64,000 nucleotides of DNA from positions 800,001 to 864,000 of the forward strand of contig CAWJET010000002.1 in NCBI GenBank assembly GCA_963842085.1. The letters are read 5' to 3'. Source of the DNA: an uncultured delta proteobacterium. Its GTDB lineage: Bacteria > Desulfobacterota > Binatia > Binatales > Binataceae. A program made the position numbers and the translations under genes. The notes under the pieces were generated by a model, which ran no database searches, was not told where the DNA came from, and saw only the letters and a list, made by a program, of their open reading frames with translations. Below are positions 1-37,795 of this stretch, piece after piece (position 1 is the stretch's first letter; every line of letters begins with the position of its first letter).

Positions 1-900
1 AGGATCGCACGCCGGCGCCGCGGCGGGTGTGGAACAAGCTCCCAGCTGCAGTTACTCAGGCCGTGCTCGAGCTTGCGCTCAAAGAACCGCAGCTATCGCC
101 GCGGGAGTTGGCGGTCTCGTTCGTCGACCAGCAGCAGTACTTCGTCTCGGAAGCCTCAGTTTATCGGCTGCTGAAGGCGCACGACCTGATCACCAGCCCG
201 GCCTTCATCTTGATGAAGGCAGCCGACAGCTTCGCCCATCCAACCACCGCACCCAATCAACTCTGGCAGACCGACTTTACCTACCTGCGGGTGATCGGCT
301 GGGGCTGGTTCTATCTGTCGACTGTCCTTGATGACTTCTCGCGCTATATCCTGGCCTGGAAGCTGTGTACCACCATGACTGCCACCGATGTCTCCGACAC
401 CCTCGCGATGGCGCTGCGCAACTCCGGGTTGGAGCGCGTCCGCGTCCGGCACCGGCCGCGCCTGCTGAGCGACAACGGACCGTCGTACGTGTCGGCCCAG
501 CTTGGCTCCTGGCTCGCGGAGCATGGCATGATGCATACCCGCGGCAAGCCCTATCACCCGATGACCCAGGGTAAGATCGAACGTTACCATCGTTCGATGA
601 AGAACCAGATCCTGCTCGAGAACTACTACCTGCCCGGTCAGCTCGAAGCGCGCCTGGCCGAGTTCGTCGACTACTACAACTCGCGCCGCTACCACGAAAG
701 TCTCAACAACCTGACCCCGGCCGACGTCTACTTCGGCCGAGGTCCCGCGATTCTGTCACGGAGGAAAAATGCCAAACTGAAAACCATCGAAGCCAGACGC
801 CGGCTGCATCATTCGTTCGCAGCCAAAGGTTCAACTCAGATGGACCAGATCCTCTCTTAATTCCTGTGCCAACTTGTCCAATAGGTTCTGACGACGTACA
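1..900 (+). mobile_element. IS3/IS481-like insertion sequence, right end only
   Basis: Transposase followed by a terminus ending ...TGTCCAATAGGTTCTGACGACGTACA at 900 (TGT...ACA type end). Confidence 0.7.
27..860 (+). CDS. DDE (rve) transposase of IS3/IS481-like element, 5' part outside window
   Basis: WQTDFTY...LDDFSRY, SDNGPSY, GKIERYH DDE motifs; ORF open from window start. Confidence 0.9.
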   Translation: MWNKLPAAVTQAVLELALKEPQLSPRELAVSFVDQQQYFVSEASVYRLLKAHDLITSPAFILMKAADSFAHPTTAPNQLWQTDFTYLRVIGWGWFYLSTVLDDFSRYILAWKLCTTMTATDVSDTLAMALRNSGLERVRVRHRPRLLSDNGPSYVSAQLGSWLAEHGMMHTRGKPYHPMTQGKIERYHRSMKNQILLENYYLPGQLEARLAEFVDYYNSRRYHESLNNLTPADVYFGRGPAILSRRKNAKLKTIEARRRLHHSFAAKGSTQMDQILS

Positions 901-922
901 GGCCATATTCCGGCCATATTCC
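901..922. repeat. 11-bp tandem direct repeat GGCCATATTCC x2
   Basis: Seen directly at 901-911 and 912-922, abutting the IS end. Confidence 0.85.
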
Positions 923-1308
923 TATGTATTTCGACGAATCCACCGCGCGTTAGCGGACATTAACGTTCCCTTCTAGTCAGCCGACGGAAGAGGCTTAGCG
1001 TGAGATTTCTTGGCAACAAGGGCGTCTCCTACGAAGAGCGCGGTGTCGTGAAATGGCGGTGCGAAGGTTGCGGTTCTCGGTTCGATCTTTTAACCGACCG
1101 ATGAGAATACCGCCCAACGAGATTCCGGAATGCCCCGACATCTGCTGGAGGAAACTCGCTGAGGACTAGGGCGTCGCGCCCGACTGGTGAAAACCGGAAA
1201 CGCAGAGGACTCCGGCGGGGGCTCAGATCAACCGCCAGAGACCTTTGATTCCCTTGTGTGTCGCAGCAGTCCGGCTCGCGCGCTTAGAAGAATTCGCCTG
1301 GGAATCGC

Positions 1309-1812
1309 TCAGCCCAAATCTGACGGGCTGTAAACGGTGAGTTCCGGAATGATGTCAAAATCAGCGTCGCGAGTAGCGAGCGATCGGATGTCACGCTCAA
1401 AGCATGCCGCTGCAATGAGCGAGTCGTTCGTCAGAAGACCGTGTTCGGATCTGATTCGCTGCGCAGCACGATGGCGCGCCTCGTTGGAGGCGAGGACGAC
1501 CAAGTTCCACTGGAAGATCCGAGCCGTCAGTTCCCAATACTTGCGCAATCCTCGAATGGCGTCGTGCTTCGATTTCAGCGCAGATGCTGCCGGTCTGCTG
1601 ATCAGGCCCAGGTCCATAGCTTCTTTGACCATCAGCCGATGACAGACCTCGCCGACCACCTCGGTCGTCGTCACACCTGCGACCTCTTCCTTCCGGCAAC
1701 GCTCTATCAGGTCCGCGCACTGGCCCGACTCCCCCAATAGACCGTAGATGAAGATGTTAGCATCAACGAAAACGAGGGTCCCGCCGGGCAGTGCGGGCAG
1801 CGGGCGAGGCAT
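1309..1812 (-). CDS. vapC: PIN-domain (VapC-like) toxin
   Basis: FVDANIFIY, TTTEVVGE, TNDSLIAA, ATRDADF acidic PIN motifs. Confidence 0.85.
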   Translation of the reverse strand: MPRPLPALPGGTLVFVDANIFIYGLLGESGQCADLIERCRKEEVAGVTTTEVVGEVCHRLMVKEAMDLGLISRPAASALKSKHDAIRGLRKYWELTARIFQWNLVVLASNEARHRAAQRIRSEHGLLTNDSLIAAACFERDIRSLATRDADFDIIPELTVYSPSDLG

Positions 1813-2082
1813 CTAAAGATATTCGAGGTCCGGATCTTCTGCGATCCACTTGAGGGTCTCGGGGTCGAGCTTCTTAAAAGTCGAAGCAATCTCGATCGCT
1901 TCCTTCCAGGCCTGCTCGGCGCGCGCGATACGCTGAGCACGGCCCTTGGCGGGCCAATGCTTGCGAATGAACGCCGCTACCTTTGGGCTCGTCTCCTTCA
2001 TCGATGAATCGGAGACCTTCGCCACCCGATTCGCGGACTTGGCCCCTGGAGAAGATGAGCGTTTTGCACGCGCTCCACTCAT
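1813..2082 (-). CDS. putative antitoxin of the PIN toxin
   Basis: Small ORF whose stop abuts the toxin ATG; basic N-terminus, acidic C-terminus (WIAEDPDLEYL); start uncertain. Confidence 0.55.
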   Translation of the reverse strand: MSGARAKRSSSPGAKSANRVAKVSDSSMKETSPKVAAFIRKHWPAKGRAQRIARAEQAWKEAIEIASTFKKLDPETLKWIAEDPDLEYL

Positions 2083-2363
2083 GTTTACCAATCTACCACT
2101 CAACCGCGGCGAGAGCGACGACCGCGAGCGGGCCCTTGTACCGACGGAGCTCGCCCGAAAACACAGCACGGCGCCGAACTTGAACAGTTCCCCGCCTTCG
2201 AGCGGATGACCTCAGCACATTCCTCAACACCCGATTTGCCAACACGACTCGAAACAACGCCCAAACTCGCGGATTTCATGCGCTAACAAATGCGCATTTG
2301 CGCCTACGCCTCGCTTCGCCTACTCTGTAGACTTCCCGAATGGTGAGGGAATTGGGGTAAGGG

Positions 2364-5029
2364 GTGGGAGCAGCAGTCGCTTCAAACAGAGGTTCGGACC
2401 GTACACTTCCTCAACCGGGCGACATCGTGAGGGTCCGCACCCGACGATACCTCGTGGAATCGGTCGAGCCAGGCTCGGATCCGATCGTCGCCTCCGTCTG
2501 TTTGGACGACGACGCTCAAGGCGACCCGCTCGAAGTCGTATGGAACCTCGAGCTCGACACCGAAATTCTGGGCAAAGACGTATGGAAGTCGATCGGTCGA
2601 AAGGGATTCGACAGCAGGCGCTATTTCGCCGCGTACGTTCACACGCTTCGATGGAACTGCGTCACGGCAACCGACCCTCGACTCTTTCAAGCGCCTTTCC
2701 GAGCCGGCATTCGCCTCGACGCCTATCAGTTGGAGCCTTTGCGCAAGTCACTGCTGCTCCCGCGCGTTAATATTTTTATCGCCGACGACGTTGGCCTAGG
2801 AAAAACCATCGAAGCCGGACTTATTGCCAGCGAACTTCTTCTGCGCCGGCGCGTTCGAGAAATCGTGGTTGCATGTCCGCCCACGATGCTGCCGCAGTGG
2901 AAGGACGAGATGGAAGCACGATTCGGCCTCACCTTCCAAATCCTCGATCGCAACTACATTGACCAAGTCCGCCAGCAGTACGGTTTTGCTGTCAATCGGT
3001 GGACGACCTTCCCTCGTTTTCTTGTTTCGCACAATCTGCTCATTGACGAAGCATACGCAGGGCCGCTCTGCGCATGGCTCGAAAACTTTCGAGCGGGCAC
3101 CTTGTTGATTCTGGACGAGGCGCATCATGCCGCTCCATCCAGCGGCGCCCGTTACGCGATCGACTCACGAATCACCCGCGCGATACGAGATATCGCGCCA
3201 CGTTTTGAACATCGGCTGTTTCTCTCTGCGACTCCTCACAACGGTCACTCGAACAGCTTCAGCGCATTGCTCGAAATCCTTGATTCTTATCGCTTCACGC
3301 GAGGTGTCCCGATTCTCAAGGGTCAGCTTGACCAGATGATGGTGCGGCGGCTCAAAGAAGACATTCGTCGTCTCGAGGGCGGATTTCCCGAGAGAATCGT
3401 CAAACAGGTCGGTATCGACGGACTGCCTACCGATGCACCCGAACTGCGACTCGCCAAGCTCCTGAGCGATTATGCGGATGTTCGAAGCGTCCGCACCGCG
3501 GGCGCAACCAGGAAGAAACAGGCCGAGGCGAAGCTGCTGATATCGGGACTTCAACAACGCCTGCTCTCATCGATTGAGGCCTTCGCGAAGACTCTGAAGG
3601 TTCATCGCCGCACCATCGAGAAACTCCGGGCAGCGGAGAGCCCCACCAAAACCCAGTCTGAGATCGACCCGCAGCTCATCCTCGGCAACTTTGATTCCGA
3701 CGATGAGCGCAGTCAGTTGCCCGAAGAGGAGCAAGAGAAGCTTCAGGACGCTGCCGTCGAGGCCGCCACCGAAAATACACGCGGAGATTCCGCGAAGGCT
3801 GACCTGCGAACCGAGCAGCAATTGCTCAACGAAATGGAGCAGGTCGCCGAAGCAGCCCGCGGTTTGCCAGATGCCAGAGTCCTCAAATTGATCGAATGGA
3901 TTAAATCCAACATGTGCGCCGGTGTGAGAGTGCCTGGGCAGCCGTCTCTGCAACCCAACGCCCCTTGGTCGGACTCGCGATTGCTCATATTTACGGAATA
4001 CGAAGACACACGGCGCTACATCGTCGCGATGCTTCGGGCGGCCGTGTCGGAAACACAGAATGCCGAAGAGCGCGTGAAGGTTTTTTCCGGCACCACAGCT
4101 GCGAGGGATCGCGAAGCGATCAAGCTCGCCTTTAATTCATCGCCCTCTGAGAATCCATTGCGGATTCTCGTTGCAACCGATGCCGCGCGCGAAGGCATCA
4201 ATCTTCAGGCTCACTGGTCGAACTTGTTTCACTTCGATCTGCCGTGGAATCCAAGCCGTATCGAGCAACGCAACGGACGTATCGATCGTAAGCTTCAACC
4301 CGCGGAGAAGGTCTTCTGCCACTACTTCTTCTACAAACAACGCGATGAAGATCGAATCTTAAAAGCCCTTTGGTCAGGAAGACGGACACCATACGTCGGG
4401 AGCTCGGTAGTCTCGCCGAGGTGCTCGAAGAACGGCTGCACCAAGCGGTCAAATTTTGAATTTCAAGGCGCGAGATCGACCAGAAAGTGCGCGATATTGA
4501 AAATGCCGGTCTCGAACCCGAGAAACGCGTGACGGCGGACGAAGAACTCGAATCGGCAAGGACACGACAGGACGCACTACTGGGCGAAATCGAAAGGCTC
4601 CAGGACCGACTCGAAAAAGCTAAAGAGTGGATCGCGCTGGACAACGATGCTCTCCGCGATGCGATATCGTGCTCGCTGGAGATGCTGAATGCCGAGCCTT
4701 TGAAACCGGCCGAGGCCAAGGGACAGGCCCGATTCGAGTTTCCGAATCTTGAAGCCAGGCATGGTGCAGACCCCACTTGGTCGACCACGCTCGACAATCT
4801 TCGCAAGCCCCCCAAAGATGGAAAGCGCGACTTCGAGTGGCGCAAGAACTCACCGATCCGGCCAGTAGTTTTCAACGCGCCACTCGGCATTGACGACGAT
4901 GTCGTTCAGCTTCATCTCCAACATCGAGTCGTTCAACGCCTTCTGGGCAGATTTCTCTCGCAAGGATTCGTAATCGACGCGGAAATCGAAGAAATTCCCT
5001 GTATTTTTCCTGATGATCAGGGAATTTGA
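2364..5029 (+). pseudogene. drmD: DISARM SNF2-like helicase DrmD, frameshifted, nonsense-interrupted and 3'-truncated
   Basis: N-terminal ...LDDDAQG...TLRWNCVTATDPRLFQAPFRAGI signature, ADDVGLGKT, DEAHH, SAT, EQRNGRIDR; frameshift at ~4365-4372, in-frame TGA at 4457-4459, homology appears to end after RFLSQGFV (~4970). Confidence 0.85.
4992..5027. repeat. 10-bp perfect inverted repeat AAATTCCCTG-N16-CAGGGAATTT at the drmD breakpoint
   Basis: Seen directly; followed by a GCAGT-N9-ACTGC hairpin. Confidence 0.75.
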
Positions 5030-5233
5030 CGCTGGAGAGCAGTTCGCATCAGACTGCGTCATCCCGCAGCCAGTCATAACAAAACGCGTTATCTCCCGGA
5101 TCTGGTCGCGAACCGAGACGAATCAAGTTTTGAGAAACGGCAAGCGTTCGCGCGGGTCTAGACCCGCGCAGCGTGCGCAAACACCCGCCATCTGTTATGG
5201 TCTGCGACGAACTTGTTCCGGAGGTAAACAGCT

Positions 5234-5527
5234 ATGGCAACATTCATGGTTCTGGCCCGCTACACGCATCAGGGTGTCGAGCACGTGAAGGCCTCGCCCG
5301 AACGACTCGAGGCGGTCAAGAAGGCTTTCCACACCAAGGGCGCGGAGGTGAAGGCCTTCTATACCTTGATGGGTGAGTACGATTCCCTCCTGATTGTGGA
5401 GGCCCCGTCGGACGAGATCATGGCGCAACTTGCGCTCGGAGTGGAAAGCAAAGGCAACGTGCGCACCGAGACCCATCGCGCCTTCAGCGAAGCCGAGTTC
5501 CGCAAGATCGTAGCGGGAATGTCTTAG
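5234..5527 (+). CDS. GYD domain-containing protein
   Basis: 97 aa, FYTLMGEYD motif, good GGAGG RBS. Confidence 0.85.
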   Translation: MATFMVLARYTHQGVEHVKASPERLEAVKKAFHTKGAEVKAFYTLMGEYDSLLIVEAPSDEIMAQLALGVESKGNVRTETHRAFSEAEFRKIVAGMS

Positions 5528-5699
5528 GCCCTGCCACACAGGCGATGGCGCAGCGCCGCGGCCAGTTCTCATCTTGTCGGTGAGTTCTCGACGAGAGTCG
5601 CCATGTTCTCCACGCTGGCTTTGGTTGCGGTGGGGGGCGCAATCGTGGAGAATGCTCAACTTTTGCTGGAACACCTGCTGCGCTTTCTAACTCAGGACA

Positions 5700-5800
5700 C
5701 TAGCGCGGGCGGATAGTCCAGCCGCGGCCCGAGCAGATCACCTCGCCCGCCTGGTTGTAAAAGACGTTGTCATGGACCACGAACAGGCGTTCCCACTGTC
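5700..5800 (-). pseudogene. C-terminal remnant of a hotdog-fold (MaoC-like) dehydratase
   Basis: Manual translation ...WERLFVVHDNVFYNQAGEVICSGRGWTIRPR*; no matching upstream part. Confidence 0.4.
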
Positions 5801-6086
5801 CGCCATTTGTCGGTCGCGCGCCCGTCTGCTAAATCGTTCTCGATATGAACCCCCGCCACGCCGCCGCGCTCGCGCTTGTGGGCTGATAAAAGAAAGGCAC
5901 GCGGGGGCTTCACCATGAGGGCATGTGGCCGAGCGTGCCATCGGCTACCCCTGGGGGGGAGTGCGAAGCCGACCATCTTCATTTAGTAGCCGCACGCAAT
6001 TATCGCTACCCACGGCGCGTTCCGAGCGGAACGATTCCGAACTTTCGCATCACGCTTATCCACAGCAAAGGAAGTTAAGCCACCCC

Positions 6087-7300
6087 TGTGCTCCGCAATA
6101 ATGATCGGTACTCAGGCAGCACGAGCGACGACACTGTACTCGTGGTGAATTCCGTTTAGGACTGGGCGAGCGACAATTGAAACTGGCCGGTCGAAATGGT
6201 GTCGGTGGCGTTGCAGGAGCGGGAAGGCTGCATGTGGACCGGGAACACCCGGTCCCAAGGAGGAATGTGGTCTGCCTTGGTTGTAGTGGGCCATCCAAGA
6301 CACCAGAGTTTTCCTCAAATGCCCTTCGCTCAGCGGAATGATCCAATCGAGGCACTCCCGCCGCAGAGTCCCGATCAGCCGTTCACAAAGCGAGTTCGCC
6401 CGCGGACTATGCACCGGCGTGGTGATCACCTTGAGGCCTAGGTGCGTCAGCGAAGCATTCAATTCGGCCGAAAAGATCCTGTCGTGGTCATGAATGATGA
6501 AGCGATACTCGTGGTCGGACGGGATAGCTTCTCGCAATTGCTGAAGCGTCCAGGCGGCGGTGGGATGAGCGGTGGCATTTAAGTGAATCAATCGACGCGA
6601 GGCATGCTCCATAGCCACAAATACGTAGAGGATTCGAAAGGTGGCGGTCACCGCGACGCAGAAGTCACACGCGATGATTCCCCGAGCGTGATTCCTTAGA
6701 AAAGTCGCCCACCGCTGGTCGCCACGCGGTCCTCCGGGCGGCGCCGCCGGCAACTTCTGCACGTACTTTCTGATTGTCCGCGGCGACACGCGCAGACCGA
6801 GCTTGAGCAGCAGTTCGTTTGCGATGCGCTCCTCGCCCCACGAGGGGTTCTCGCGCGCCATTTTGCGAATCAGATGTTGAAGTTCGAGAGGGGTTGGCCG
6901 TCGGCCAGCTTCGGACTGCCAGCGCCAGAAGAGGCGGAAGCCCTTGCGGTGCCAGGCAACCAAGGTCTTGGGCCTCACGACGACCAACGCGTTGCGCCAA
7001 TCGAACCAGCGGCTGAGCAGCACGAGCGTCAGGCGGGTCGGATTGTCGGCACGTCGGGGCTTGACCTTGCGCTCTTGATAAAAGGCGAGCTGCTTGCGCA
7101 GGAACAGATTCTCGGCCGCTAGCGAGGTTCTGGAGCGCAAGCCGAGACACAGAAAGTGAACTAGATCATACACGACCCTTAGCCAACTCAGCCCTGCGCC
7201 CACCATGCAACCGGCCCTCTTTCGTCAACGGATGTCTCCGTAAAATCCCTAAGAACTATGCGCGTTTCAAACCAGAGCGAAATGATTTTTGCGGACCACA
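6087..7300 (-). mobile_element. IS481-like element (1214 bp)
   Basis: Terminal IRs TGTGCTCCGCAATAATGATC / TGTGGTCCGCAAAAATCATT (16/20 match), TGT...ACA ends, single rve transposase; no target duplication visible. Confidence 0.75.
6112..7206 (-). CDS. integrase core (rve) transposase
   Basis: ACDF...HDHDRIF...ERLIGTLRRECLD, YNQGRPHSSL. Confidence 0.88.
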   Translation of the reverse strand: MVGAGLSWLRVVYDLVHFLCLGLRSRTSLAAENLFLRKQLAFYQERKVKPRRADNPTRLTLVLLSRWFDWRNALVVVRPKTLVAWHRKGFRLFWRWQSEAGRRPTPLELQHLIRKMARENPSWGEERIANELLLKLGLRVSPRTIRKYVQKLPAAPPGGPRGDQRWATFLRNHARGIIACDFCVAVTATFRILYVFVAMEHASRRLIHLNATAHPTAAWTLQQLREAIPSDHEYRFIIHDHDRIFSAELNASLTHLGLKVITTPVHSPRANSLCERLIGTLRRECLDWIIPLSEGHLRKTLVSWMAHYNQGRPHSSLGPGVPGPHAAFPLLQRHRHHFDRPVSIVARPVLNGIHHEYSVVARAA

Positions 7301-7764
7301 AGATCCCAATCCCGAATAGATCTGACAAGTTACCACCGTTCAGTTGCTCAGCGTTGGCGATAACGACGCGTTCTTCCCGACTAACGCTAAATCTCACGCG
7401 ACCGGCTTCGGTCTCAGGAAATCTGCCCGCAGCTAAAGTGTCCGTCTCGATCGGAGCGTGAGCAACTCGACTTTACGATCACCAAAAAACCAGCGCTGCC
7501 GCCCCATATGCCGCGACGCCGGTTCGAAGACTGTGCGCCAGCGGTGCCGCAGTTGTTGCAACGACCGTCAGCCGGTCGGCTCCACGACGTAATTCCATGG
7601 GCTACTGATGGCCAATTAGACGCGACCCGCATGCTTGGCAGTTCGTGATTTCGCCGACCTCGTCACCAACGACGCCGGCACACGCGGTGAAATCCAACGC
7701 TGCGCGCGAAGACGAGCCGCAGCGATTCTGAGTGGCGGATGGGCGCACATCATGATAAGCCGTC

Positions 7765-8595
7765 GTGATGCGATTTTCCATGCGACTCCTGCACTTAGAG
7801 ATAGCCACCGGCCTAATAATTGTTCTCGCCGCGAAGCTGTGGTGCGGCTCGATGGCGTGGGCTTATCCGGGCGGGCCGTTGCAGGATGTTACCGACGCAG
7901 CACCGTACTGTGCCGGCTGTCATTCTTCGACCGACGCTAATCAGCTGCGCGACATGCAGGGGCCGCGGAAGCAGCAGATGCTTGCCGCCAGCCACATTTC
8001 CGCGATCAAGGCCGGCCAGGGCAACTATTCGAAACTTACTCTCGAGCAGCGAAACCAACTCGCCGCCGACGTTGAGAAGGTTGATGACAACGCCAAGGTC
8101 TCCATCGACGTTCCTGCGGTCGTGAGTCGCGGAGCGGATTTCGCGGCCCGCGTCGAAGCGCAAGGCGGCTCCGGACCAGTGGTTGGGCTAATGCTGCTGG
8201 ATGGGGACCTGCGCAACCAGTCGCGGGCCATCGAGGCCGAAGGTTTTACGATCGTTGGAGCGCCGGGAGTCATTGGCCCCGACGGAAAGCCGCAAGAGCA
8301 GTGGGAGGCTCGCCGCTACGACGATCTCGCGCGCAATTTGAATTTCCTAGTGGTGTTCGCAGTCAAGGCTGATCTTGCAACGAATCAGTTCTCGACCTCG
8401 AAGGTTACCTACAATTTGACCGCGCCGTCGAAGCCCGGAAGGTACACGATGTGCGCAGCATTTCTGTACGGGACCGAGAAAGCATCGCCGATCGGACGCG
8501 TCGAAATGCACGGACAAATCCTGCCCCTGGGCGGCTACGCTGGTGCTTCGGGTCGAATAAGATTTTCCGAACTGAAGACGATCGAAGTGCGTTAA
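7765..8595 (+). CDS. exported monoheme c-type cytochrome-like protein
   Basis: Signal-peptide-like segment ending AWA-YPGG, single CAGCH (CxxCH) motif; start uncertain. Confidence 0.6.
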   Translation: MMRFSMRLLHLEIATGLIIVLAAKLWCGSMAWAYPGGPLQDVTDAAPYCAGCHSSTDANQLRDMQGPRKQQMLAASHISAIKAGQGNYSKLTLEQRNQLAADVEKVDDNAKVSIDVPAVVSRGADFAARVEAQGGSGPVVGLMLLDGDLRNQSRAIEAEGFTIVGAPGVIGPDGKPQEQWEARRYDDLARNLNFLVVFAVKADLATNQFSTSKVTYNLTAPSKPGRYTMCAAFLYGTEKASPIGRVEMHGQILPLGGYAGASGRIRFSELKTIEVR

Positions 8596-8768
8596 TCCAA
8601 CCGCCACCTCCACATGATCGCGTCTAAATCGAAGGCACGCCGTACCACGGTTGAATCGGGTGCGTCGTCACTCAAGCCCGCCTCTTCCGCAGTGAACACT
8701 CGTTTTCGCGGGAAGCAGTCTTTGGCTTTTTGCACGTCCCAGTCCAGAAGGAATTTGTAGCCCTGCAT
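8592..8768 (-). pseudogene. truncated PIN-like (DUF5615/Mut7-C-like) toxin remnant, 58 aa
   Basis: Manual translation MQGYKFLLDWDVQK...AEEAGLSDDAPDSTVVRRAFDLDAIM resembles the N-terminal half of PIN-like toxins. Confidence 0.35.
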
Positions 8769-8871
8769 CTCAGGTTCGCTTCAGAGTAGTCGTGTGACCT
8801 TGAGGCCGTTGCTGAGCATCCAGACCTGCTCGATCCTGTCCGGCCTCGCTAATTGAGCAAGCGCTTGCTCG

Positions 8872-9378
8872 ATGACCCGAACTCCGTGGGCGGATGCGAT
8901 GGCCGGCGATCTCAAGGGCGGCATCGCCCGGATGCGAGAGGGAGGAATGATGGCTTTTGGGGTAAAGGAGGATCAGGTCTCATCACCCCCGATTGCCGCC
9001 GTCCTCGGCCTGATGGGACGGTTCGAGGAGGGTCTTCGCATCATCGACAAGTCATCCTCGACCATCGAGCGGACCGGCCAGCGAATACATGAGGCGGAGG
9101 TATATCGCGTGAAGGGCGAACTGCTGCTGATGCAGGACGCCTCGAATGCCGCGCCCGCCGAGCAATGCTTCCGCACCGCGATCGAGGTTTCGCTACGCCA
9201 GAAGGCGAAGTCATGGGAGCTGCGCGCGGCGACGAGTCTGGCGCGCCTGCTAGACCAGCAAGGCAAGCGCGACGAAGCCCGCGCGATGCTCGCTGGCATC
9301 TACAACTGGTTCACCGAAGGCTTCGACACCGCCGACTTGAAGGACGCCAAGGCCCTGCTCGATGAGTTGAACGACTAA
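8872..9378 (+). pseudogene. C-terminal TPR-like tail of a cyclase/STAND ATPase protein (fragment)
   Basis: EAEVYRVKGELLL...AKSWELRAATSLARL...WFTEGFDTADL is the typical tail of cyclase-AAA proteins; N-terminal domains missing. Confidence 0.75.
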
Positions 9379-9499
9379 ATGTCTTGTGCGCACTGTCGGC
9401 GCGGCCCAGCCGTAGGTTGCATTAGCTCGGACTGTTGGTAGTTTGAGCGGGTAGTAAATGTCGGGCGGCGAAACGCGAGCCGCCCGCTTCTGATCTGTA

Positions 9500-12341
9500 A
9501 TGACTCAGGCCGGCACGGCAACCCTGCTGTTCACCGATCTGGTGAACTCGACCGAGCTTCTCAGCCGGGCCGGCGACGAGCGCGCCCAGCAGATTTTCAG
9601 GGCCCATCACAAGCTGCTGAGCGATGCGGTCGTGGCGCACGGTGGCCACGAGGTCAAGTGGCTCGGCGACGGATTGATGGTTGCGTTCCCATCGGCGGCC
9701 GACGCGGTGCGCTGCGCGATCGCGATGCAACAGAGCGGACGGCGTCCCTTGGCGGGAGCGCGCTTGGGCTTGCGCGCCGGACTGCACGTCGGAGAAGCGC
9801 TGCGCGATGAAGCCGACTACTTCGGGACTGCGGTAGTAGTGGCGCGGCGGCTGTGTGAGCGCGCCGCCGCGGGCCAAATCATCGCGAGCTCGCTGGTGTC
9901 GGGGCTGCTTGCAGGACGTGAGAACTTCAGCTTCCGCGACCTAGGCGCCCTTGAGTTGAAAGGATTCGCGGTACCTGTCCCTGCGTGCGAGGTGCTCTAC
10001 GAGCACGACGAGCCAACCGCGATCCTGCGCCAGATGCCGTTCGTCGGACGCGCGGGCCAGATGGCCCGGCTGGAACACAAGCTTGCAGATGTACGCGCCG
10101 GACGCGGCGGTCTGGTGATGGTCGTTGGCGAGCCGGGTATCGGCAAGACCCGCACGCTCGAGGAATTCGCCGCAAACTCCCGCGCACACGGCGCGCTGGT
10201 GCTGTGGGGGCGCTGTTACGAGGGCGAATGGGCGCCGCCTTACCGCCCCTTTGCGGAGGCGATAACTGAGTACGCGCGCGCCGCCGACACGGAACATCTG
10301 CGCCGTGAGCTCGCTTATGGAGGACCGCCGCTGGCGCGGCTCGTTCCGATCATCCGCGAGCGCATCGCGGACCTCGGCGAACCAGCGCCGCTCCAACCAG
10401 AGGAGGAGCGCTTCCGACTACTCGACGCGGTTTCGCAACTTCTCATCGCCGTGTCCGCACGCACACCATTGGTCCTCGTGCTGGACGATTTGCATTGGGC
10501 GGATCGCGGGACGATCGCGATGCTGCGTCATGTCGCACGCTTCATCGCCCACAATCGTATTTTGGTGATTGGCGCTTACCGCGACGTCGAGCTCGACCGC
10601 CAGCATCCGCTCTCCGACGCGCTCGCCGCGCTCAGGCGCGAGGCCGAATACGAACGTATCAACCTCAAAGGGCTCGACAGTCGCGAGGTCGGAGAACTGC
10701 TCCAGACGGTCACCGACCAGGACGTGCCCGAGCCATTGGTCAAAGCGATCGACGCGGAAACGGAGGGCAACCCGTTCTTCATCCGCGAAGTGCTGTTGCA
10801 TCTGATCGAGGAAGGGAAGATCTCCCGCCAGGACGGCCGCTGGAGGTCGGACCTGGCAATCGAGGAGTTGGGCATTCCCGAGGGCGTGCGGCAGGTGATC
10901 GGACGGCGATTGTCGCGGCTCTCCGACGAGGCGAATCGCGTACTGGCGGCGGCGTCTGCATTCAACGGCGCCTTCCACTTCGGAATCGCCGCGAAAGTAG
11001 CGGGCCTTGACGAGGGCGCGGCCTTGAAGGCGGTGGACGCGGCGCTAGATGCGCAACTGATCCGCCCCGGTACCGAGGCCGACAGTTACGATTTCACCCA
11101 CGCGCTTATCCGCCACACCCTGTACGGCGAAATGAACCCATCCAGGCAGGTCCGGACCCATCGGCAGATCGCGGAGGCTATGGAGGAGTTCTGGGGCGCG
11201 CGAGTTGCTGAGCATGCGGCCGAGGTGGCCTATCAATATTCGCGCAGCGCGGCGCTTCCGGGCGCCGAGCGCGGCGCGGTTCACGCGATCGCGGCCGCGG
11301 ATCGGGCGGAGGCTGCCTATGCCCATGATGATGTCGCCGCCTTCTTCAAAATCGCGCTCGAGCTGTTGCCGCAAACGGACTCGCGGCGGCCGCGCGTGCT
11401 CGGTCGCCTCGGACTTACGCTCGCATGGATGCTGGAATCCGAGGAGGCTCTGAAGATCGCCGGCCAGGCGGGAGATCTAATCGCAGCTTCGGAAGGAAAC
11501 GCGGCAGCAGCCAACTATCTTGCGGAGGCTACGGAAGCGATGGGTCAGGCGGGGTTCTTCCGTGAAGCTGGCGCTCTGGCGGTTCAAGGGCTTCGATACA
11601 CGGGTGATCGCCGAGACAACACCTGGGCAATATTGACGGCGCGGGACCTGACACGCGAGGAGTCCGAGAGCCCTGACTACATGGGACTCCCATTGGACTC
11701 GCCTCGCCGGCGGGAGTTGTACGAGTTTGTACGCAACCGAAGAGCGGAGGCCATGCACTTTTACGGCCTTATGGCGTTCCGATCCCGCGATGAAGTTCTG
11801 GCCGGTGCCGCCGCCGATTCCATTGATTCCACCAGCCTCCCTTGGGCGCTAACCTTCGCCGCCGGCGAATACCGCCGCGCCTTGCCGCTCTGGCAAGAGC
11901 GAGCCGCTCGCAGCGAGAGGCAGGGACGAATTGCCGTGGCCGTCGAGGGCTGGGCGCAGGCCGCGCGCTGCCTCAATGCGCTCGGCGATCTCGCGGCGGC
12001 GCGGGCAGCCTACCAGAAGGAGAGAACCGCGGGCTCACGGCTGACCACCACATCTACGCAGGTTCTGCAGCTCCTAACTGCAAGAGATGAGATGTGGCTG
12101 GCGCTGGACGAGAACTGGGAGAAGGCCATCGCGCCATATGAATCGGGCGCTGAAGAGGGCGTCGAGGTCACTTGGTTCTTGGCAGCATTCCGAGCCGCCC
12201 GCGCCCGCATCTACGCGCATCTGGGAAGGGAGAAGCAAGCGCTCGACTTGTTGAACATGGTCATCGCGCCGCTCGAGCGAGCGCCGGGTTGGGCCCCGAA
12301 TTACACCCGGACCGCTTGCGACGCGGCCTCGACGCTCTGGA
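9500..12341 (+). pseudogene. class III adenylate/guanylate cyclase fused to STAND/AAA ATPase, truncated by IS3
   Basis: TLLFTDLVNST, EVKWLGDG, Walker A GEPGIGKT, Walker B LVLDD, GNPFF; reading frame runs into the IS IR at 12342. Confidence 0.85.
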
Positions 12342-12455
12342 TGGAGCTGCCCCGTTTCGGTGGACGGTTTAGGGCTTGGTTTTAGTTCATTGGTTTTGTC
12401 TCGTCGAGAGTTCCGTTTTGATGTTCATCTGGTACCAGCTTTTCGGCCCCAGCCC

Positions 12456-13436
12456 TCACCGATTGGGGCTGGGGCCGGAAAGCGTTATGGAATCTTGATC
12501 CGAGAGCGCGGCGCCGTGCAGCGCGCCGGCCGCCGCGTTGTTCGGCGGCCAAGCGGTGCGCAGAGCGGTCGAGCTCCGCATGCTTTGATTCGGTTCGGCC
12601 CGATAGATTTGTTCGTACTCGAGCGGCGAACGATAGCCGAGGGCGGAGTGGCGGCGGTGCGGATTGTACCAGCCCTCGATGAAGTCGAAGATCGCCATCC
12701 TCGCCTCGACCTGGGTTTTGAAACGGTGGCGGTCGAGCAGCTCGCATTCCAGGGTGGCGAAAAAGCTTTCGCACATCGCGTTGTCGAAACAGTCGCCTAC
12801 CGAACCCATCGAGGCACGCACTCCTGCCTCACGGCAACGCATGCCGAACGCGATCGAGGTGTATTGGGTGCCCTGGTCGGAATGATGGATTACCGTGGTC
12901 GGCCGGCGCTGCCCGAGCGCCATATTGAGCGCTGCCAACACCAGCTCGGTGCGCAGATGATTCTCCATCGCCCACCCAATCACGCGGCGGCTAAACGCGT
13001 CGAGGACAACCGCCAGGTACAGAAAGCCGGCCCAGGTTGGAACATAGGTGATATCGGCGACCCACAGCTGATTGGGCGCCGCCGCGGTGAAGTTACGCTC
13101 GACCAGATCCGGCGCCGGTCGCGCGGCGCGATCGCGAACCGTGGTGGTGATCCACTTGCGCCGGCTGACTCCGTGAAGTCCCGCCGCGCGCATCAGCCGC
13201 GCCACCCGCTTACGTCCGACCGCGATGCCGTCGGCTAACAGCTCGGCATGAATGCGCGGAGCGCCATAGCTGGTGCGCGACCGTTCATGAATCGCGCGAA
13301 TGCGCGCCGTCAATTGCGCGTCGGCCCGAGCCCACGCCGACCGCGGTCGTCTTAGCCACGCCCAGTAGCCGCTGGTGGAGACCTCCAGCACCCGGCACAT
13401 CGTGGCGATTGCGTACATGGCCTGATTCGCGCTCAC
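12456..13436 (-). CDS. IS3 OrfB transposase
   Basis: WVADITY, HSDQGTQY, DNAMCESFF; GTG start overlaps orfA TGA. Confidence 0.92.
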   Translation of the reverse strand: MSANQAMYAIATMCRVLEVSTSGYWAWLRRPRSAWARADAQLTARIRAIHERSRTSYGAPRIHAELLADGIAVGRKRVARLMRAAGLHGVSRRKWITTTVRDRAARPAPDLVERNFTAAAPNQLWVADITYVPTWAGFLYLAVVLDAFSRRVIGWAMENHLRTELVLAALNMALGQRRPTTVIHHSDQGTQYTSIAFGMRCREAGVRASMGSVGDCFDNAMCESFFATLECELLDRHRFKTQVEARMAIFDFIEGWYNPHRRHSALGYRSPLEYEQIYRAEPNQSMRSSTALRTAWPPNNAAAGALHGAALSDQDSITLSGPSPNR

Positions 13437-13747
13437 GAATTGGAACGCCGTGACGGCACTGAGCCGGTCTCCGTGGCGAACCAGGCCGCGGCTTTTGATA
13501 GGATCTCACGCTCTTCGCGCAAAATCCGGTTCTCGCGCCGCAGTCGGCTCAATTCCTCGCGCTCACTTGTGGTCAGGCCATCGTTTCTCACTCCTTCATC
13601 CAGCTCTGCCTGTCTCACCCACTGCCGAATCGACTCTAACGTCGGCTCAAACTCTCGCGCCAATTCCGTCAGCGGCCGGCCTGCGCGCGCCAGTTCGACT
13701 ATCCGCCGCCGATACTCAGCCGGGTATGGTGGATGTGTCTTGGCCAT
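13433..13747 (-). CDS. IS3 OrfA
   Basis: HTH then leucine zipper (EELSRLRRENRILREEREIL); AAAAG candidate -1 frameshift motif near 13492-13496 on minus strand. Confidence 0.9.
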   Translation of the reverse strand: MAKTHPPYPAEYRRRIVELARAGRPLTELAREFEPTLESIRQWVRQAELDEGVRNDGLTTSEREELSRLRRENRILREEREILSKAAAWFATETGSVPSRRSNS

Positions 13748-13804
13748 CGTCTTTCCTCCCTCACTCTCTTCCCCAACACACTCCACGAAACCGGGTCAAC
13801 TCCA

Positions 13805-14830
13805 GAGTATCACACCCGGCCGCTTCGACAGCGGCTTCTCGGCGAGCGTCACCGCGACGGCGTTCTCCGAGATGTAGGCGAGCACGCGGCTGGTGTCCCA
13901 TCCCTCGGCCAGCGCGTCGGCGAGGTCCCAGCCCTTCGCCCACGCGGGGTTGAACCTGACGATCTCGGGGCGCAGACCGACCTCGCGGAAGTACTCCTCG
14001 AGCAGGAACATCGCCTTGCGGCCCTCGGCGTCGGCGTCCGGCCAGAGCACGAGCCGGGGCCGGTTCTCGCCGGCCCCGCGATTCAGGATCGGCCCCCAGT
14101 CGGTGAACTTCGGGCCGATGCGCCTCACGCCGCCGGCCCAGGTGACGCAAATCCAGTCGGGGAGCAGCTGGCGCGCGGCGTCGGCGGTCTTTTCTCCTTC
14201 GACGATGATTAGGGGCGCGTCGTCGCTGAGGGCCAGCAGTTCGAGGCCGTACAGCGGCCGCGGCGCCGGCAGGTCGCGCCAGCGCCACTCCGTCGCGCCG
14301 GTCTGCATGTTCTGGCAGAAGGTCAGCGGCAGCACGTCCTTCGAGCCGTCGGGACGGTCGAACCGGACGCGCCAGCACAGGGGCACGCCGTCCGCGTTCA
14401 GGTAGCACCACATCGCAGTCGGCGCGGCGTCGCCCATGCGGCTCGGGGGCAGGACCGGGAAGTCCTCGGCCGTCATCGGCGCGTAGTCGGGGATCGTGGC
14501 CATCGGGACCCACGGGTTCTGGGTGACGCCGAGCGGCCGGTTCAGGCCGAGCAGGATGCCGAGCTCCTTGCCCGCGTCCTTGTAGGAGAGCTTGTTTATC
14601 GCGGCGAACAGCGAGATCGCGTCGTTGCCGCTGACGCCGGCGCGGGCGAAGTCCGCCCAGGCGCTGGTCCTGATGTTGACCTTGAGCGAGTTGCCCGGCT
14701 CGCCCGCGACGGAGCCGGCGACGAACTCGTTGCCCTCGATCCGGCCGCCGGGAAGCCACTCCTGAAGCAGCGCGGGATAGCGCGCGAGCGCTTCGCGCCG
14801 GATGAGCTCGAACCACTCTCTAGCCGACAT
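13805..14830 (-). pseudogene. phage/satellite-type Toprim DNA primase, C-terminally truncated by IS3
   Basis: RPLYG, IIVEGEKTADA, WPDADAEG, KGWDLADA Toprim motifs; no helicase domain before the IS end. Confidence 0.8.
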
Positions 14831-14880
14831 CGTGCAACCCCTCTGTCGCCATCTGCGGCCATCTCGCTCTCAGTGAGTTA

Positions 14881-15075
14881 TCACCGCGCCGCCTCGCCGA
14901 CCTTCTTCTCAAGCGCCTCGCGCGCCATCGCTTCAAGCGCTTCCCTCGGAATCCGAATCGCGTTGCCAAACTTTCTCGACGGGACAACGCCCCGGCGCAC
15001 TAGGATGTACGCCATGCTGCGCGAAATCTGCGCCTGCTCGGCGAATTCGCGGACCCGAAGAAAAACCGTCTCCAT
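14881..15075 (-). CDS. excisionase/AlpA-like HTH protein
   Basis: 64 aa, FLRVREFAEQAQISRSMAY...KFGNAIRIPR HTH_17-like pattern; GAGG RBS. Confidence 0.8.
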   Translation of the reverse strand: METVFLRVREFAEQAQISRSMAYILVRRGVVPSRKFGNAIRIPREALEAMAREALEKKVGEAAR

Positions 15076-15288
15076 GGGGAACCTCGCTTAGTTACTATTT
15101 GCGATCTTGTAGGGAGGGCTGCATACCGTCAAGCCCCTTATCGCACAAACCCGCCCTCATTCGTCGAAGTTCATCGCGAACATCCCGTTGACATAGCAGA
15201 TTTCCATTGACGTTGAAGGGGTATTGCGTCTAACGGCGGTCCAATTTACAATTAGCCGTAGTTATTTCTGCTGAAGGCCTTAATCCTT

Positions 15289-16062
15289 ATGACAAATCAG
15301 TGGCTGTCCAGTGTCTGGCGAGATGCCGTCCGGCGCTGCGGTCAGAGACCCGACGAACGGGCCGACGCCCTGCTCCGTCTGCTGCAGCGCAAAGGCTTGG
15401 ATTCGCTGAAGGGGGCCGCTCTCGACGCGGCGCTCGCCGACCTCGCCCTGATATGCGTGGTGGGCGGTCGCTACCACCTGCCCGAAGGCCTCGCTGTCCA
15501 GCCCGAGGTCACAGGGCCGCAGGTGGCCGAATTCGCCGACATGACGATGTGGCGGCTGCGCGACCTGCTCAAAAACCGACGGGTACATGTCCCGGTGTCC
15601 CAGATCACGTTAGAGATCGGCTGGAAGGAATCACAAGAGCGCCTAGGGACAATCGTTTTTTGGGCCCGCGACTTCTTGGGGACTTGCAGCCTGGGCGCAT
15701 GGCAACTGCTGGCGGACCATTTGGGCCGGATCCAGACGTGTCAACGGCCTAAGTGCGGCAACTTGTTCGTGGTCCGTAGGCGCAAGGTCTACTGCTCGCC
15801 CCAGTGCGCCGCTAGGGTTCACGTTAAGCGGTTCCTCGACAGTCTAGGACCCGAGGAGCGCGGCTTCATTCGCAGAGCGACTTATCTCCGTCAGCTGCTG
15901 AAACGCGATCGCGTGCATGCTGAGCACTACCTCGCTCGCCTGATGCGCAAGGATCAGAAGACCGCGAGCCGGCTCGCGAAGGAAGTAATTGAAGGGAAAG
16001 CACGGCGACGCTCAACCGTCGTCAAAAAGAGAGGCCACAGAGATGTCAAGATTCAAGGGTGA
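15289..16062 (+). CDS. CGNR-like zinc-finger protein
   Basis: CQRPKC...YCSPQC four-Cys motif then a basic helix; overlaps integrase start. Confidence 0.6.
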   Translation: MTNQWLSSVWRDAVRRCGQRPDERADALLRLLQRKGLDSLKGAALDAALADLALICVVGGRYHLPEGLAVQPEVTGPQVAEFADMTMWRLRDLLKNRRVHVPVSQITLEIGWKESQERLGTIVFWARDFLGTCSLGAWQLLADHLGRIQTCQRPKCGNLFVVRRRKVYCSPQCAARVHVKRFLDSLGPEERGFIRRATYLRQLLKRDRVHAEHYLARLMRKDQKTASRLAKEVIEGKARRRSTVVKKRGHRDVKIQG

Positions 16063-17194
16063 AGGAACAATTTTCCGGCGCCGCGACGGGCGGTGGTGTG
16101 CCCGCATTGACCTCGGTTGGGTCAACGGTAGGCGCAAGCAGAAGTTCTTCTACGCCCACAACCGCGCCGCCGCTGCCGACCTGCTCGTCGAGGCGTTGCA
16201 CAAGCGCAAACAGGGCGAGACGATTCCGACCAATCGCACCACACTCGGCCGATTTATGCAGGGCTGGCTCGAAACGGTCAAAGCAACGCGCAGGCCGCGC
16301 ACCCATCAGCAATATGAGATGCTCAACCGGCTGCACGTCGAGCCAGCTCTCGGGCAAATGCAACTAACGCGGCTGGACGCGCAAGCGGTGCAAGCATTGC
16401 TTGACGCGAAGGTCAAACAGGGTCTCTCCCCTGGCACGGTGCGGCACGTGCGAACCCTGCTACGGCGAGCGCTCAACGTTGCGCTAAAGCGCAAACTCGT
16501 ATCGCTCAACGTGGCCGCGCTCGCTGACGAACTGCCCCCGCGCCGAAAGCCAGAGATCAAACCCCTCACCGAAGAGCAGGTTCGAAGCCTGCTTGTCGCC
16601 GCCCGCGAGCACTATCCACGCTGGGAGGCACTATTCGCGCTCGCTGTCCGCCTCGGTTTGCGGCGCGGTGAACTGGCGGCCCTACGCTGGGACGATGTAA
16701 ATCTCGAACGTCGCGAACTCCGGGTAGCGCAGTCCCTGCAACGCGTCCCCGGCCAGCCGCTCACGAGCGCCGAGCCGAAGACGCAGGGGGCGCGGCGGGT
16801 CATCGTGATGCCGAAGGAGATTATCAAACTCTTGCGCGTCCACCGCGCACGTCAGGCGCAAGAGCGCCTGGTCGCGGGCTCGGAGTGGAACGACAGCGGC
16901 TTGATCTTCGCGAACACAATCGGCAAGCCGCAGGAACCAAGGAGGATCAACACGGTTTTCGACAACCTCAAGAAGAAGGCAGGGCTTCCGGCCTCGACGC
17001 GGGTTCACGACCTCCGACATACCGCCGGAGTGCGCCTGCTCGAACACAAAGTGGCCCTCTACGACGTAAGCCAACTGCTAGGTCATTCTTCGATCGCGAT
17101 CACCGCGGACGTCTACGCGCACTGGACACCGAAGATGCAACGCGACCTCGCCGACCGCATCGACACCATAGCCAACGCCGAGCTGCATCCGTAG
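16043..17194 (+). CDS. tyrosine integrase (phage/ICE type)
   Basis: GEGTIFRRRDGRW arm-binding N-terminus, GLRRGEL, HDLRH, LGHS, Y nucleophile (DVYAH). Confidence 0.93.
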   Translation: MSRFKGEGTIFRRRDGRWCARIDLGWVNGRRKQKFFYAHNRAAAADLLVEALHKRKQGETIPTNRTTLGRFMQGWLETVKATRRPRTHQQYEMLNRLHVEPALGQMQLTRLDAQAVQALLDAKVKQGLSPGTVRHVRTLLRRALNVALKRKLVSLNVAALADELPPRRKPEIKPLTEEQVRSLLVAAREHYPRWEALFALAVRLGLRRGELAALRWDDVNLERRELRVAQSLQRVPGQPLTSAEPKTQGARRVIVMPKEIIKLLRVHRARQAQERLVAGSEWNDSGLIFANTIGKPQEPRRINTVFDNLKKKAGLPASTRVHDLRHTAGVRLLEHKVALYDVSQLLGHSSIAITADVYAHWTPKMQRDLADRIDTIANAELHP

Positions 17195-17283
17195 CCCGTT
17201 GGAGCTCCTGTCGAACGCTCGGCTGCGCAAGTTTCGCGACAACCCGCGCAAGTCGCGCAACGCCGCAATTCGCGGCCGCAAAC

Positions 17284-17320
17284 GGTGACGGTGACGATCA
17301 GGTGACGATGGTGACGATGA
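17284..17320. repeat. four GGTGACG(AT) direct repeats
   Basis: Copies start at 17284, 17290, 17301, 17310. Confidence 0.8.
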
Positions 17321-17362
17321 TTTCCCTACTCTCGGACCCTGAGGAAAAGAGAAATACACTGC

Positions 17363-17477
17363 TGACACCCATTTGACACCCCAAGGTCGGTCAAAAATCG
17401 TTGACTACCCAACCGCAGAATACGCCATGACACGCGAGCGCGCGTAGGCGGACGGGTTTTGAAAGTGGTGACACGCG
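17363..17477. repeat. putative integrase arm-type sites (TGACACCC x2 at 11-bp period, TGACACGCG x2)
   Basis: Copies at 17363, 17374, 17428, 17469, between int and the att core. Confidence 0.5.
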
Positions 17478-17507
17478 GTATGCAGCGATGGACAGGTAGG
17501 TAGCGAC

Positions 17508-17546
17508 TCCGAAGTCTGATGCTCTATCCAGTTGAGCTACAGGCAG
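17508..17546 (-). tRNA. 5' half only of tRNA-Arg(UCG) (positions 1-38), att-site fragment
   Basis: Minus strand reads CTGCCTG-TA-GCTC-AACTGGATA-GAGC-A-TCAGA-CT-TCG-GA, then non-tRNA sequence instead of TCTGA. Confidence 0.85.
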
Positions 17547-17559: not shown

Positions 17560-17603
17560 GTGTAACAGTAGATTTGACACCTCGTCCAAAGATTTGTTAC
17601 ACT
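17560..17603 (+). promoter_or_regulatory. higBA sigma70 promoter with operator inverted repeat
   Basis: TTGACA (17574-79), 18 bp, TGn-TACACT (17598-603); GTGTAACA (17560) / TGTTACAC (17595) inverted repeat. Confidence 0.7.
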
Positions 17604-17611
17604 GAGGTTTG

Positions 17612-17887
17612 GTGATCGCGAGTTTTAAGCACAAGGGTCTCAAGGAAATATTTGAGACCGGCAAGAGTGCAAGGGTGGATCCGCGACTCCATCAACGCTG
17701 CTCTGACCTGCTCGACGCAATAGAGGCGGCCGTGAATCAACAAGATCTTAACCTGCCCGGCTTCAATTTCCATCCGCTAAGGGGCAAGCCCGTCCGGTAC
17801 AGCATGCACGTCAATGGTCCGTGGACGATCACTTTCGAATGGAGCGCTCCGAGAGCCAGTAGAGTCGATTTAGAGCAGTATCACTAG
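17612..17887 (+). CDS. higB: HigB/RelE-family toxin
   Basis: MIASFKHKGLKE...FHPLRG...VNGPWTITF...VDLEQYH. Confidence 0.92.
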   Translation: MIASFKHKGLKEIFETGKSARVDPRLHQRCSDLLDAIEAAVNQQDLNLPGFNFHPLRGKPVRYSMHVNGPWTITFEWSAPRASRVDLEQYH

Positions 17888-18397: not shown

Positions 18398-19060
18398 ATG
18401 AATAGAACACAAACAAATTCCGCTGGAATTTCCAATGGTCGCCCCTTCCACGTCCACGACGAGCAGGCCGCCAAGCGCGAGCGTATCCTCGGCGCCGCGC
18501 TTAAGCTCTTCGCGCACGAGCCCTACCAAGCCGTCACCATGGACCGCGTGGCGGAGGCCGCCGGGGTGGCCAAGGGCACATTATATCTCTACTTTCCGTC
18601 GAAAGACGCGCTCTACCTCGGCGTTTTGAGCGACGGACTCGACACCGCCTACCGCACCTATCAAAGCAGCGCCGATCCGAAGCTGCCGGTGGTGGAGCGG
18701 CTGCGCCGTTCGATCGCGGTGACGGTTGAGTTTTACGATCAGCGGCGCGATTTCCTTCAGTTTTTCGCAACCGAGGAGCCGCGGCTGTCGGAGGCGCGCA
18801 ATCGCATCATCGAAGGTTCGCGCGAGCGCGGCTTCAACTTCTTCGCCTCGCTGATCGAGGAAGGAATCCGCACCGGCGTGTTCACGCGCGTCGATCCGCG
18901 CCTTGCGACGTTTACGATCCAGGGCGCGATTCGCTCGCTGCTGTTGTACTACGGCCCCGGCCGCCCGGTCTCCGAGCTCAGCCGCGAACTCGGCGACTTG
19001 ATGCTGCGCTCGCTCGGCGCAGACCCGTCGGGTCACTTCAAGCCGGTGCATCCGCAATGA
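18398..19060 (+). CDS. TetR/AcrR transcriptional regulator
   Basis: VTMDRVAEAAGVAKGTLYLYFPSK HTH. Confidence 0.93.
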   Translation: MNRTQTNSAGISNGRPFHVHDEQAAKRERILGAALKLFAHEPYQAVTMDRVAEAAGVAKGTLYLYFPSKDALYLGVLSDGLDTAYRTYQSSADPKLPVVERLRRSIAVTVEFYDQRRDFLQFFATEEPRLSEARNRIIEGSRERGFNFFASLIEEGIRTGVFTRVDPRLATFTIQGAIRSLLLYYGPGRPVSELSRELGDLMLRSLGADPSGHFKPVHPQ

Positions 19061-37759: not shown

Positions 37760-37795
37760 GCGGGCGACCACAACTGAGTTATCGGAGAATAGCCA

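Follow-up and report, generated by a model that had tools for sequence, protein, structure and literature searches.

Tyrosine integrases that target tRNA genes usually carry the 3' part of the tRNA. The locus considered here raises the question of what has taken place when the half left beside the integrase is the 5' one, and nothing in the neighborhood completes it. It lies in a window of 64,000 nucleotides (the whole stretch of DNA that was analyzed, C2:800001-864000), which belongs to a genome of two contigs and 4.93 Mb assembled from a soil metagenome. A sequence-only reading of this window had recognized the 5' half of a tRNA-Arg(UCG) gene and had proposed that the element next to it either disrupts the tRNA, or supplies its own promoter and 5' half and rebuilds the gene at its other end.

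The fragment itself is readily identified. The minus strand from 17546 to 17508 presents an acceptor strand, a D arm (GCTC/GAGC), the anticodon stem TCAGA and the loop CTTCGGA, and over the span from position 3 to A38 it agrees with the only tRNA-Arg(TCG) gene of the genome in 36 of 37 bases (bases 3-39 of the 77-nt gene; blastn-short E 4.5e-12). From position 7 on all 33 of 33 bases are identical, and with a match of this extent and E value the likeness is not due to chance. At its 5' end the fragment reads CTGCCTG versus GCGCCCG in the intact gene, differing at positions 1, 2 and 6; identity begins at position 3, and the first two positions are replaced. The assignment to positions 1-38 of tRNA-Arg(UCG) was thus correct as to the 5' half and its loop, but identity covers positions 3-38 only. 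A38 is the final base of the anticodon loop, and immediately after it unrelated sequence begins and continues for 313 bases to the integrase stop. That the match stops at the last loop base supports the anticodon-loop crossover already suspected, and the loop is presumably the exact crossover point.

The other half of the gene is absent, as the sequence-only reading had noticed: ARAGORN finds no tRNA in the 64-kb window, and blastn-short detects no separate 3' half of tRNA-Arg(TCG) in the window or anywhere in the genome. A 3' half following CTTCGGA and ending in the acceptor strand CAGGCAG had been expected; the sole match to that pattern falls inside a GNAT acetyltransferase frame on C1 and was rejected as chance.

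The missing piece turns out to lie just beyond the left edge of the window. A search of both contigs with ARAGORN found a single intact tRNA-Arg(TCG), at C2 c[798889,798965]. It shares the strand of the fragment and precedes the first base of the window by 1036-1112 bases. The intact tDNA and its cognate fragment, in direct orientation, bracket an island, with the fragment upstream on the tRNA strand (Table 1). Comparison with relatives that lack the island, another check that the early reading had proposed, reveals the empty site. In G002, G005 and others, an intact tRNA-Arg(TCG) adjoins tetR, and tetR, the tRNA gene and a conserved core are contiguous (in G002:C12, tetR at 33882-34633, the tRNA at 34717-34804 and the core at 35492-38509). 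The core, which corresponds to C2:795000-797978, lies downstream of the tRNA beyond a stretch that varies among the relatives. There tetR and the tRNA gene are divergent and about 115 bp apart, and the conserved intergenic region between them contains a promoter-like TTGCGC-N17-TAGACT. In the present genome tetR is found to the right of the fragment and the core to the left of the intact tRNA, so that the DNA between them is an insertion. Upstream of its intact tRNA, the genome does not have the native TTGCGC..TAGACT sequence that the relatives conserve. The G+C content of the island, taken in 1-kb steps, is 55-67%, showing no contrast with the 61-62% of the genome.

Table 1. Features of the island and its borders; positions are those of the window unless preceded by C2
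Feature	Position	Strand	Remark
Island	C2:798966-817507	.	about 18.5-18.6 kb between intact tRNA and fragment
Island body within the window	1..17507	.	extends left to C2:798966, about 1 kb past the window start
Second tandem pair, Z arm	C2:799018-799038	same strand as the Y pair	52 nt upstream of intact tRNA
Tyrosine integrase	15989..17194	+	401 aa as listed; PF00589 E 9.1e-29, PF14659, PF22022
GTGACGA repeats (three), Y arm	17291..17317	+	9-11 bp spacing; +191, +200, +211 after the loop
Tandem pair TGACACCC-N3-TGACACCC, Y arm	17363..17381	+	proposed arm-type integrase sites, 126 nt from the loop
5' fragment of tRNA-Arg(TCG), attL core	17508..17546	-	positions 3-38 as in the intact gene; match ends at A38
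higB and higA-like HTH gene	17609-17887, 17926-18261	+	in place of the native tRNA promoter and positions 1-2
tetR-family gene	18398..19060	+	conserved chromosomal neighbor

Which half of the tRNA the element brought with it can be read from the DNA that flanks the two copies. The sequence upstream of the intact tRNA (Z) and the sequence that follows the loop of the fragment (Y) share seven 12-mers, versus a mean of 0.04 and a maximum of 3 after shuffling. Both arms contain a tandem pair, which reads GGGTGTCAA / GGGTGTCAG on the tRNA strand and shows the motif TGACACCC on the opposite strand; in Z it occupies -73/-60, counted from the tRNA start, and in Y +127/+138, counted from the loop. Genome-wide, the exact motif TGACA[GC]CC has 154 sites but only two tandem pairs at a spacing of 10-14, and these lie just inside the two island ends, at C2:799018 and C2:817363. 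They are proposed to be arm sites to which the integrase would bind. The Z arm also carries GTGACGA repeats, three at -252/-243/-234 and one at -319, in an orientation inverted versus Y; these are possibly sites for an accessory or directionality factor. A third GGTGTCA match, at 17575-17581, was considered as an arm site and rejected, being the TTGACACC promoter-like box of higBA; that box is partly kept (five of eight bases) in the higBA copy of G004. The attP deduced from both ends thus consists of a pair, 126 nt, the loop, the 5' half plus 52 nt (84 nt together) and the second pair. This attP carries tRNA positions 1-38, and the rebuilt gene is composed of an island 5' half and a host 3' half.

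These observations very probably mean that the island entered tRNA-Arg(UCG) through the anticodon loop, carrying the 5' part of the gene in a mirror-image attP, and rebuilt the gene at its far end. Tyrosine-integrase recombination in the 7-base anticodon loop would have placed an element of about 18.6 kb in the chromosomal gene, the attachment site of the element bringing tRNA positions 1-38 and not the usual 3' part. An attachment site with the 5' part leaves the resident 5' half stranded on the tetR side, beside the integrase. At the far end, the 5' half of the island would join the host 3' half and so form the only intact tRNA-Arg(UCG) of the genome. The reversed layout inferred early on is in this way borne out, with the intact gene at one end and the 5' fragment on the integrase side.

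The integrase and its relatives allow the layout to be set against a family norm. The gene reads toward the tRNA fragment, its open frame is intact, and its product has SAM-like and central domains besides the Phage_integrase catalytic domain. Homologues align from residues 8-28 onward, and the true start is likely the ATG at residue 19, where they begin to align. Among 300 other genomes of the class, 35 have a match at E 1e-40 or better, the best identity being 49% (48% near-full-length). Twenty-nine homologue loci were examined with 1.5-kb flanks. An intact tRNA is convergent with the integrase and less than 450 bp from its stop in 18 of them, including L033 and L034 (47%), two of the three closest homologues, where that tRNA is again tRNA-Arg(TCG). 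Two more loci have a convergent tRNA 0.9-1.2 kb away, four have a tRNA-Arg just upstream on the same strand, and five have no tRNA in the flanks. With an intact tRNA beside the integrase in most homologue loci, the family norm is classical; these classical homologues share 33-49% identity with the present integrase. Such ordinary neighborhoods, including one case of a 3' duplication, are what the sequence-only reading had held would count against it, but they do not refute the reversal in the present island.

What sets the present island apart is the orientation of its arm sites. A tandem TGACAGCC pair occurs in ten of the 29 loci (L033-L041, not L042, and L050), always on the tRNA sense strand, and in eight of the ten it lies between the integrase and the adjacent tRNA. 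Of the remaining two, L037 has the pair beside a tRNA-Glu 1.2 kb from the integrase, and L035, whose flank contains no tRNA, has it close to the end of the locus. In L045 something resembling a pair, each site with one mismatch, lies on the other strand beyond the tRNA; the remaining 18 homologue loci contain no tandem pair. In the present island the pairs are inverted relative to integrase and tRNA versus all ten homologues, which makes its attP the mirror image of that of the family. The 5' half would sit between the loop and the downstream arm pair, exactly where relatives hold the 3' half, and the comparison shows the present element as an exception within its integrase family. A DNA search of the 46 other genomes of the genus for a second copy of the island returned tRNA matches only, and contig collections yielded one integrase locus at 40% (genomes) and one at 28% (metagenomes). 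Without a second island copy or a close integrase relative among these, the flip in polarity rests on one element.

The classical habit of the family, with an intact tRNA in the 1.5-kb flanks of 24 of 29 homologue loci and 18 of these convergent within 450 bp, is also what would lead one to think of a classical island that was rearranged later, such that the tRNA on the integrase side lost its 3' half and the gene 18.6 kb away is unrelated or native. We consider this very unlikely. Deletion could remove a 3' half, but it cannot invert the pair on the integrase side with respect to all ten homologues that have one. The match ends exactly at A38, as it does in three other element types at tRNA-Arg(TCG), and the tRNA at the far end has a non-native upstream region with a second arm pair. 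Moreover, no 3' fragment exists anywhere in the genome, and in relatives the native tRNA adjoins tetR and is not 19 kb away from it.

The mirror relation is best appreciated next to a classical island in G312, which uses the same tRNA-Arg(TCG) and the same loop. Its integrase is 47% identical to the present one over residues 19-396. In each island the integrase gene reads toward the core and the two arms bear tandem TGACA[GC]CC pairs, whose distances are similar. G312 has a 3' fragment, reaching from A31 to the 3' end plus eight bases, 13.1 kb from the intact gene, and its layout runs pair, 107 nt, loop, 3' half plus 48 nt (86 nt), pair, integrase. The present order of pair, 126 nt, loop, 84 nt and pair is read on the opposite tRNA strand from that of G312. 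In other words, G312 carries the loop and 3' half with its pairs on the tRNA sense strand, whereas the present island carries the 5' half with its pairs antisense. By analogy with lambda-type integrases, whose general behavior underlies this idea, the integrase may recognize the symmetric anticodon stem, and the orientation of the 7-base loop with respect to the arms would then set the polarity of insertion.

Since the genome derives from soil metagenome data, a wrongly resolved 37-base repeat could in principle have produced the junction as an assembly artefact. Eight soil-metagenome DNA runs from two studies contain the stretch, of which four were examined as short-word contigs. Among the contig pieces listed from these four, all stop at or before the 37-base repeats; none bridges either repeat copy, and none displays a joint of a circle or of an empty site. 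Word depth in the unique parts of the island is about equal to that in the flank. The other resolution of the repeat would join the tetR side to the 3' half and close the island into a circle, but the attP of that circle would keep the 5' half between the arm pairs, so that the reversal survives either way of resolving the repeat. In addition, the junction of the island arm with tRNA position 1 lies outside the 37-base repeat, and the same architecture is present in the single-contig genome G007 and in G016. An artefact is accordingly very unlikely, and the least probable of the explanations weighed here.

The reversed polarity is found in other company at this tRNA gene. In G016 and G007, where the native upstream sequence and positions 1-38 are present, CTTCGGA gives way directly to a conjugative element (G016:C4:765639-814372, L014-L016, 48.6 kb; G007:C1:3446821-3510141, L017-L020, 63 kb). 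Like the present island, it leaves a 5' half beside tetR and has the tRNA rebuilt at its far end, where the 5' half carries a C in the D-loop (GGACAGAGC) versus a T in the stranded half (GGATAGAGC). It differs from the present island in retaining the native promoter together with positions 1-38 on the tetR side, in encoding TraD, a type IV coupling protein and a MobA/MobL relaxase, and in an integrase of only 29% identity. This integrase gene also sits at the opposite end, in the orientation of the rebuilt tRNA and terminating 63 bp before it, so that the tRNA might be co-transcribed with the integrase gene.

A third kind of sequence follows the same loop junction in G323 and G017. A direct repeat of about 96 bp in G323, made up of a promoter-like upstream region and the tRNA 5' half, brackets 3.4 kb (G323:C27:238338-241872, L082). 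The repeat reaches about 57 bp upstream of the tRNA and so covers the promoter-like region. The 3.4-kb segment has no recognizable integrase, its one ORF having a weak Mrr_N match, and for want of an integrase it is not counted as an active element; it may represent a reversed element, now decayed, by which the native promoter was copied. In G017:C31 the 5' fragment has a non-native, promoter-like upstream sequence.

How common the two polarities are was estimated by using the 77-base gene as a query against all 47 genomes of the genus; these genomes are kin and not independent, and kinship inflates the counts. Fragments of the 5' part only (bases 1-40/41, or 3-39 in the present genome) occur in eight of the 47 genomes, namely G000, G007, G016, G017, G323, G318, G010 and G018, or in seven of 46 without the unpublished G018. 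They reach position 1 in G016, G007, G323 and G017, and G017 has in addition one shorter piece, bases 50-77. Fragments of the 3' part only are equally found in eight of 47 (G009, G317, G327, G004, G019, G008, G014 and G330). The 3' fragments start at bases 24-33 and the 5' fragments end at bases 39-41, so that the loop is all they have in common, and the crossover is thereby located there for both polarities. The gene is an insertion hot spot in other respects too: G327 has two intact copies and a 3' fragment within 2.6 kb, and G009 has a 16.6-kb classical island there.

The stranded half of the present island has a history of its own. Native sequence on the tetR side is kept only up to the GCGAGTCAAC box, after which the higBA block begins. 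Two relatives have the same block, together with its palindromic GTAACA..TGTTAC promoter region, at unrelated positions (88% at L004, G004:C15:43410-44115; 84% at G002:C24:15684-16378), and from this recurrence it appears to behave as a small mobile module. Because the fragment differs at positions 1, 2 and 6 and has higBA for its 5' flank, its origin is uncertain. The simpler account is that the stranded half, some time after the island had arrived, lost its native promoter and first two bases to the incoming higBA block. The fragment could also be the 5' half of an older reversed element with higBA at its tRNA-proximal end, most of which was later deleted, and thus the remnant of a tandem array. 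Consistent with this, the 5' flank of the fragment is non-native and starts with a block that is mobile in the genus, and the G017:C31 fragment with its non-native, promoter-like upstream sequence indicates that displaced, element-borne halves exist. However, identity starts at position 3 only, and a half reading CTGCCTG would have given the older element a tRNA with a C1.C72 mismatch; there is no further trace of such an element between tetR and higA; and a single replacement of about 70 bp by higBA, with native sequence kept up to the GCGAGTCAAC box, is simpler. An older element is therefore a credible but less probable source, and later replacement by higBA is modestly favored over it. The matter concerns the fragment only, and an older element is compatible with the entry of the present island through the loop with a 5'-carrying attP.

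Returning to that reading, the two options first offered for the locus, disruption or a rebuilt gene with a promoter supplied by the element, can now be separated: rebuilding holds, but the promoter was not found. Consensus scans detected no sigma-70-type promoter on the tRNA strand 220-800 bases upstream of the rebuilt tRNA, the best relaxed match being 9 of 12. About 430 bp of island DNA separate the rebuilt gene from the adjacent insertion sequence, and on the present reading the gene would be expressed from island DNA. It had further been suggested that a CGA-decoding tRNA dependent on the island would make the island hard to lose. As a general rule this is unsupported, for when such an element is excised, the half left behind normally makes the gene whole again, and the genome also encodes tRNA-Arg(ACG) and tRNA-Arg(CCG) (ARAGORN). 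By textbook decoding, these two presumably cover the CGN codons, which would make any dependence on the island at most partial. A weaker form of the suggestion may apply to this island, because its stranded half is without the native promoter and the first two bases. The gene predicted to result from precise excision would lack the native promoter, and its acceptor stem would contain two G.U pairs and a C1.C72 mismatch. Such a product is nevertheless scored as a tRNA-Arg by ARAGORN, so that its loss of function would be conjectural.

Beyond the integrase, the island carries a Toprim-domain gene, three rve (DDE) transposase loci, a PIN-domain gene, a split DrmD-like SNF2 helicase, a TPR gene and a cyclase/AAA ATPase gene; no excisionase was recognized among the island genes. 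The island may still be mobile today. The DrmD-like helicase (PADLOC DrmD E 8e-236; window 2364-5029) is divided into two overlapping frames, 2364-4532 and 4487-5029, and looks like a broken remnant of a DISARM-type defence gene. At 9500-12385, behind the small TPR gene, lies the gene for a 961-aa protein with an N-terminal adenylate/guanylate cyclase domain and an AAA_16 ATPase domain, weakly matching PycC in PADLOC (E 5e-8), which may be signaling or defence cargo. At 12452-13758, contigs from three of the four soil metagenome runs skip 1305 bases that include two transposase frames with HTH_Tnp_1 and rve domains. This insertion sequence may be polymorphic in the population, although the shorter side of the joint measures only 23 bases.

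Islands that displace a 5' fragment of the tDNA were reportedly first described by Zhao and Williams in 2002. The reversed layout is already catalogued, if rare, and the present island is not new in kind. Islander counts 159 of 3919 islands with a 5' fragment versus 3760 with a 3' fragment, and accepts a 5' fragment located upstream of the tDNA (PMC4383910). The class agrees with the present island: the fragment lies upstream of the gene that is rebuilt and points the same way, the integrase gene stands between the two, and the 5' portion is thus carried by the element. The present island differs from the class in that its fragment starts at position 3 and not at 1, its native flank is lost, and the other sampled members of its integrase clade are classical. 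Outside tRNA genes, islands of dusA-specific integrases are reported to insert in the 5' end of the target gene (Farrugia et al. 2015, PMC4482086); these are alike in their 5'-end insertion and differ in that the target is a protein-coding gene and not a tRNA. In a paper on an S. meliloti hot spot, no mention of 5'-end integration was found.

Three features go beyond the ordinary. The clade is classical, yet this element has a mirror-image attP; a single tRNA of one genus is used about equally in both polarities (8/47 each, counts that kinship inflates within the genus) versus some 4% reversed islands in the Islander survey; and no native promoter is left beside the stranded half. A more far-reaching account would join all of this. 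It holds that the element, a member of an otherwise classical clade, turned its entire attP around relative to the tRNA, docks in mirror image on the symmetric anticodon stem-loop and so captured the 5' half along with the transcription signals of the gene; that, once the native promoter and the start of the stranded half had been destroyed, the sole tRNA-Arg(UCG) gene became dependent on the island, which was fixed by this tRNA capture; and that elements capturing the 5' half, at least three kinds of them unrelated to one another, match the classical ones in frequency at this tRNA in this genus. Taken as a whole, we hold this account to be rather doubtful. If it were true, the gene left by precise excision would have no promoter and a mismatch in its acceptor stem. 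The idea of a host tRNA tied to its island is testable, and it is unproven.

What at first appeared to be a broken tRNA gene is resolved, the gene being whole just outside the window and the island precisely delimited. The comparison provides a sequence-level picture of the reversed layout in one integrase clade, in which the arms are inverted and a 5' half takes the place of the 3' half. For annotation and island-finding software, it follows that 5' fragments on the integrase side should be paired with distant intact tRNAs and not be taken for disruptions. Should the more far-reaching account be true, the locus would constitute a natural system in which to study how an integrative element reverses its orientation to the target gene.
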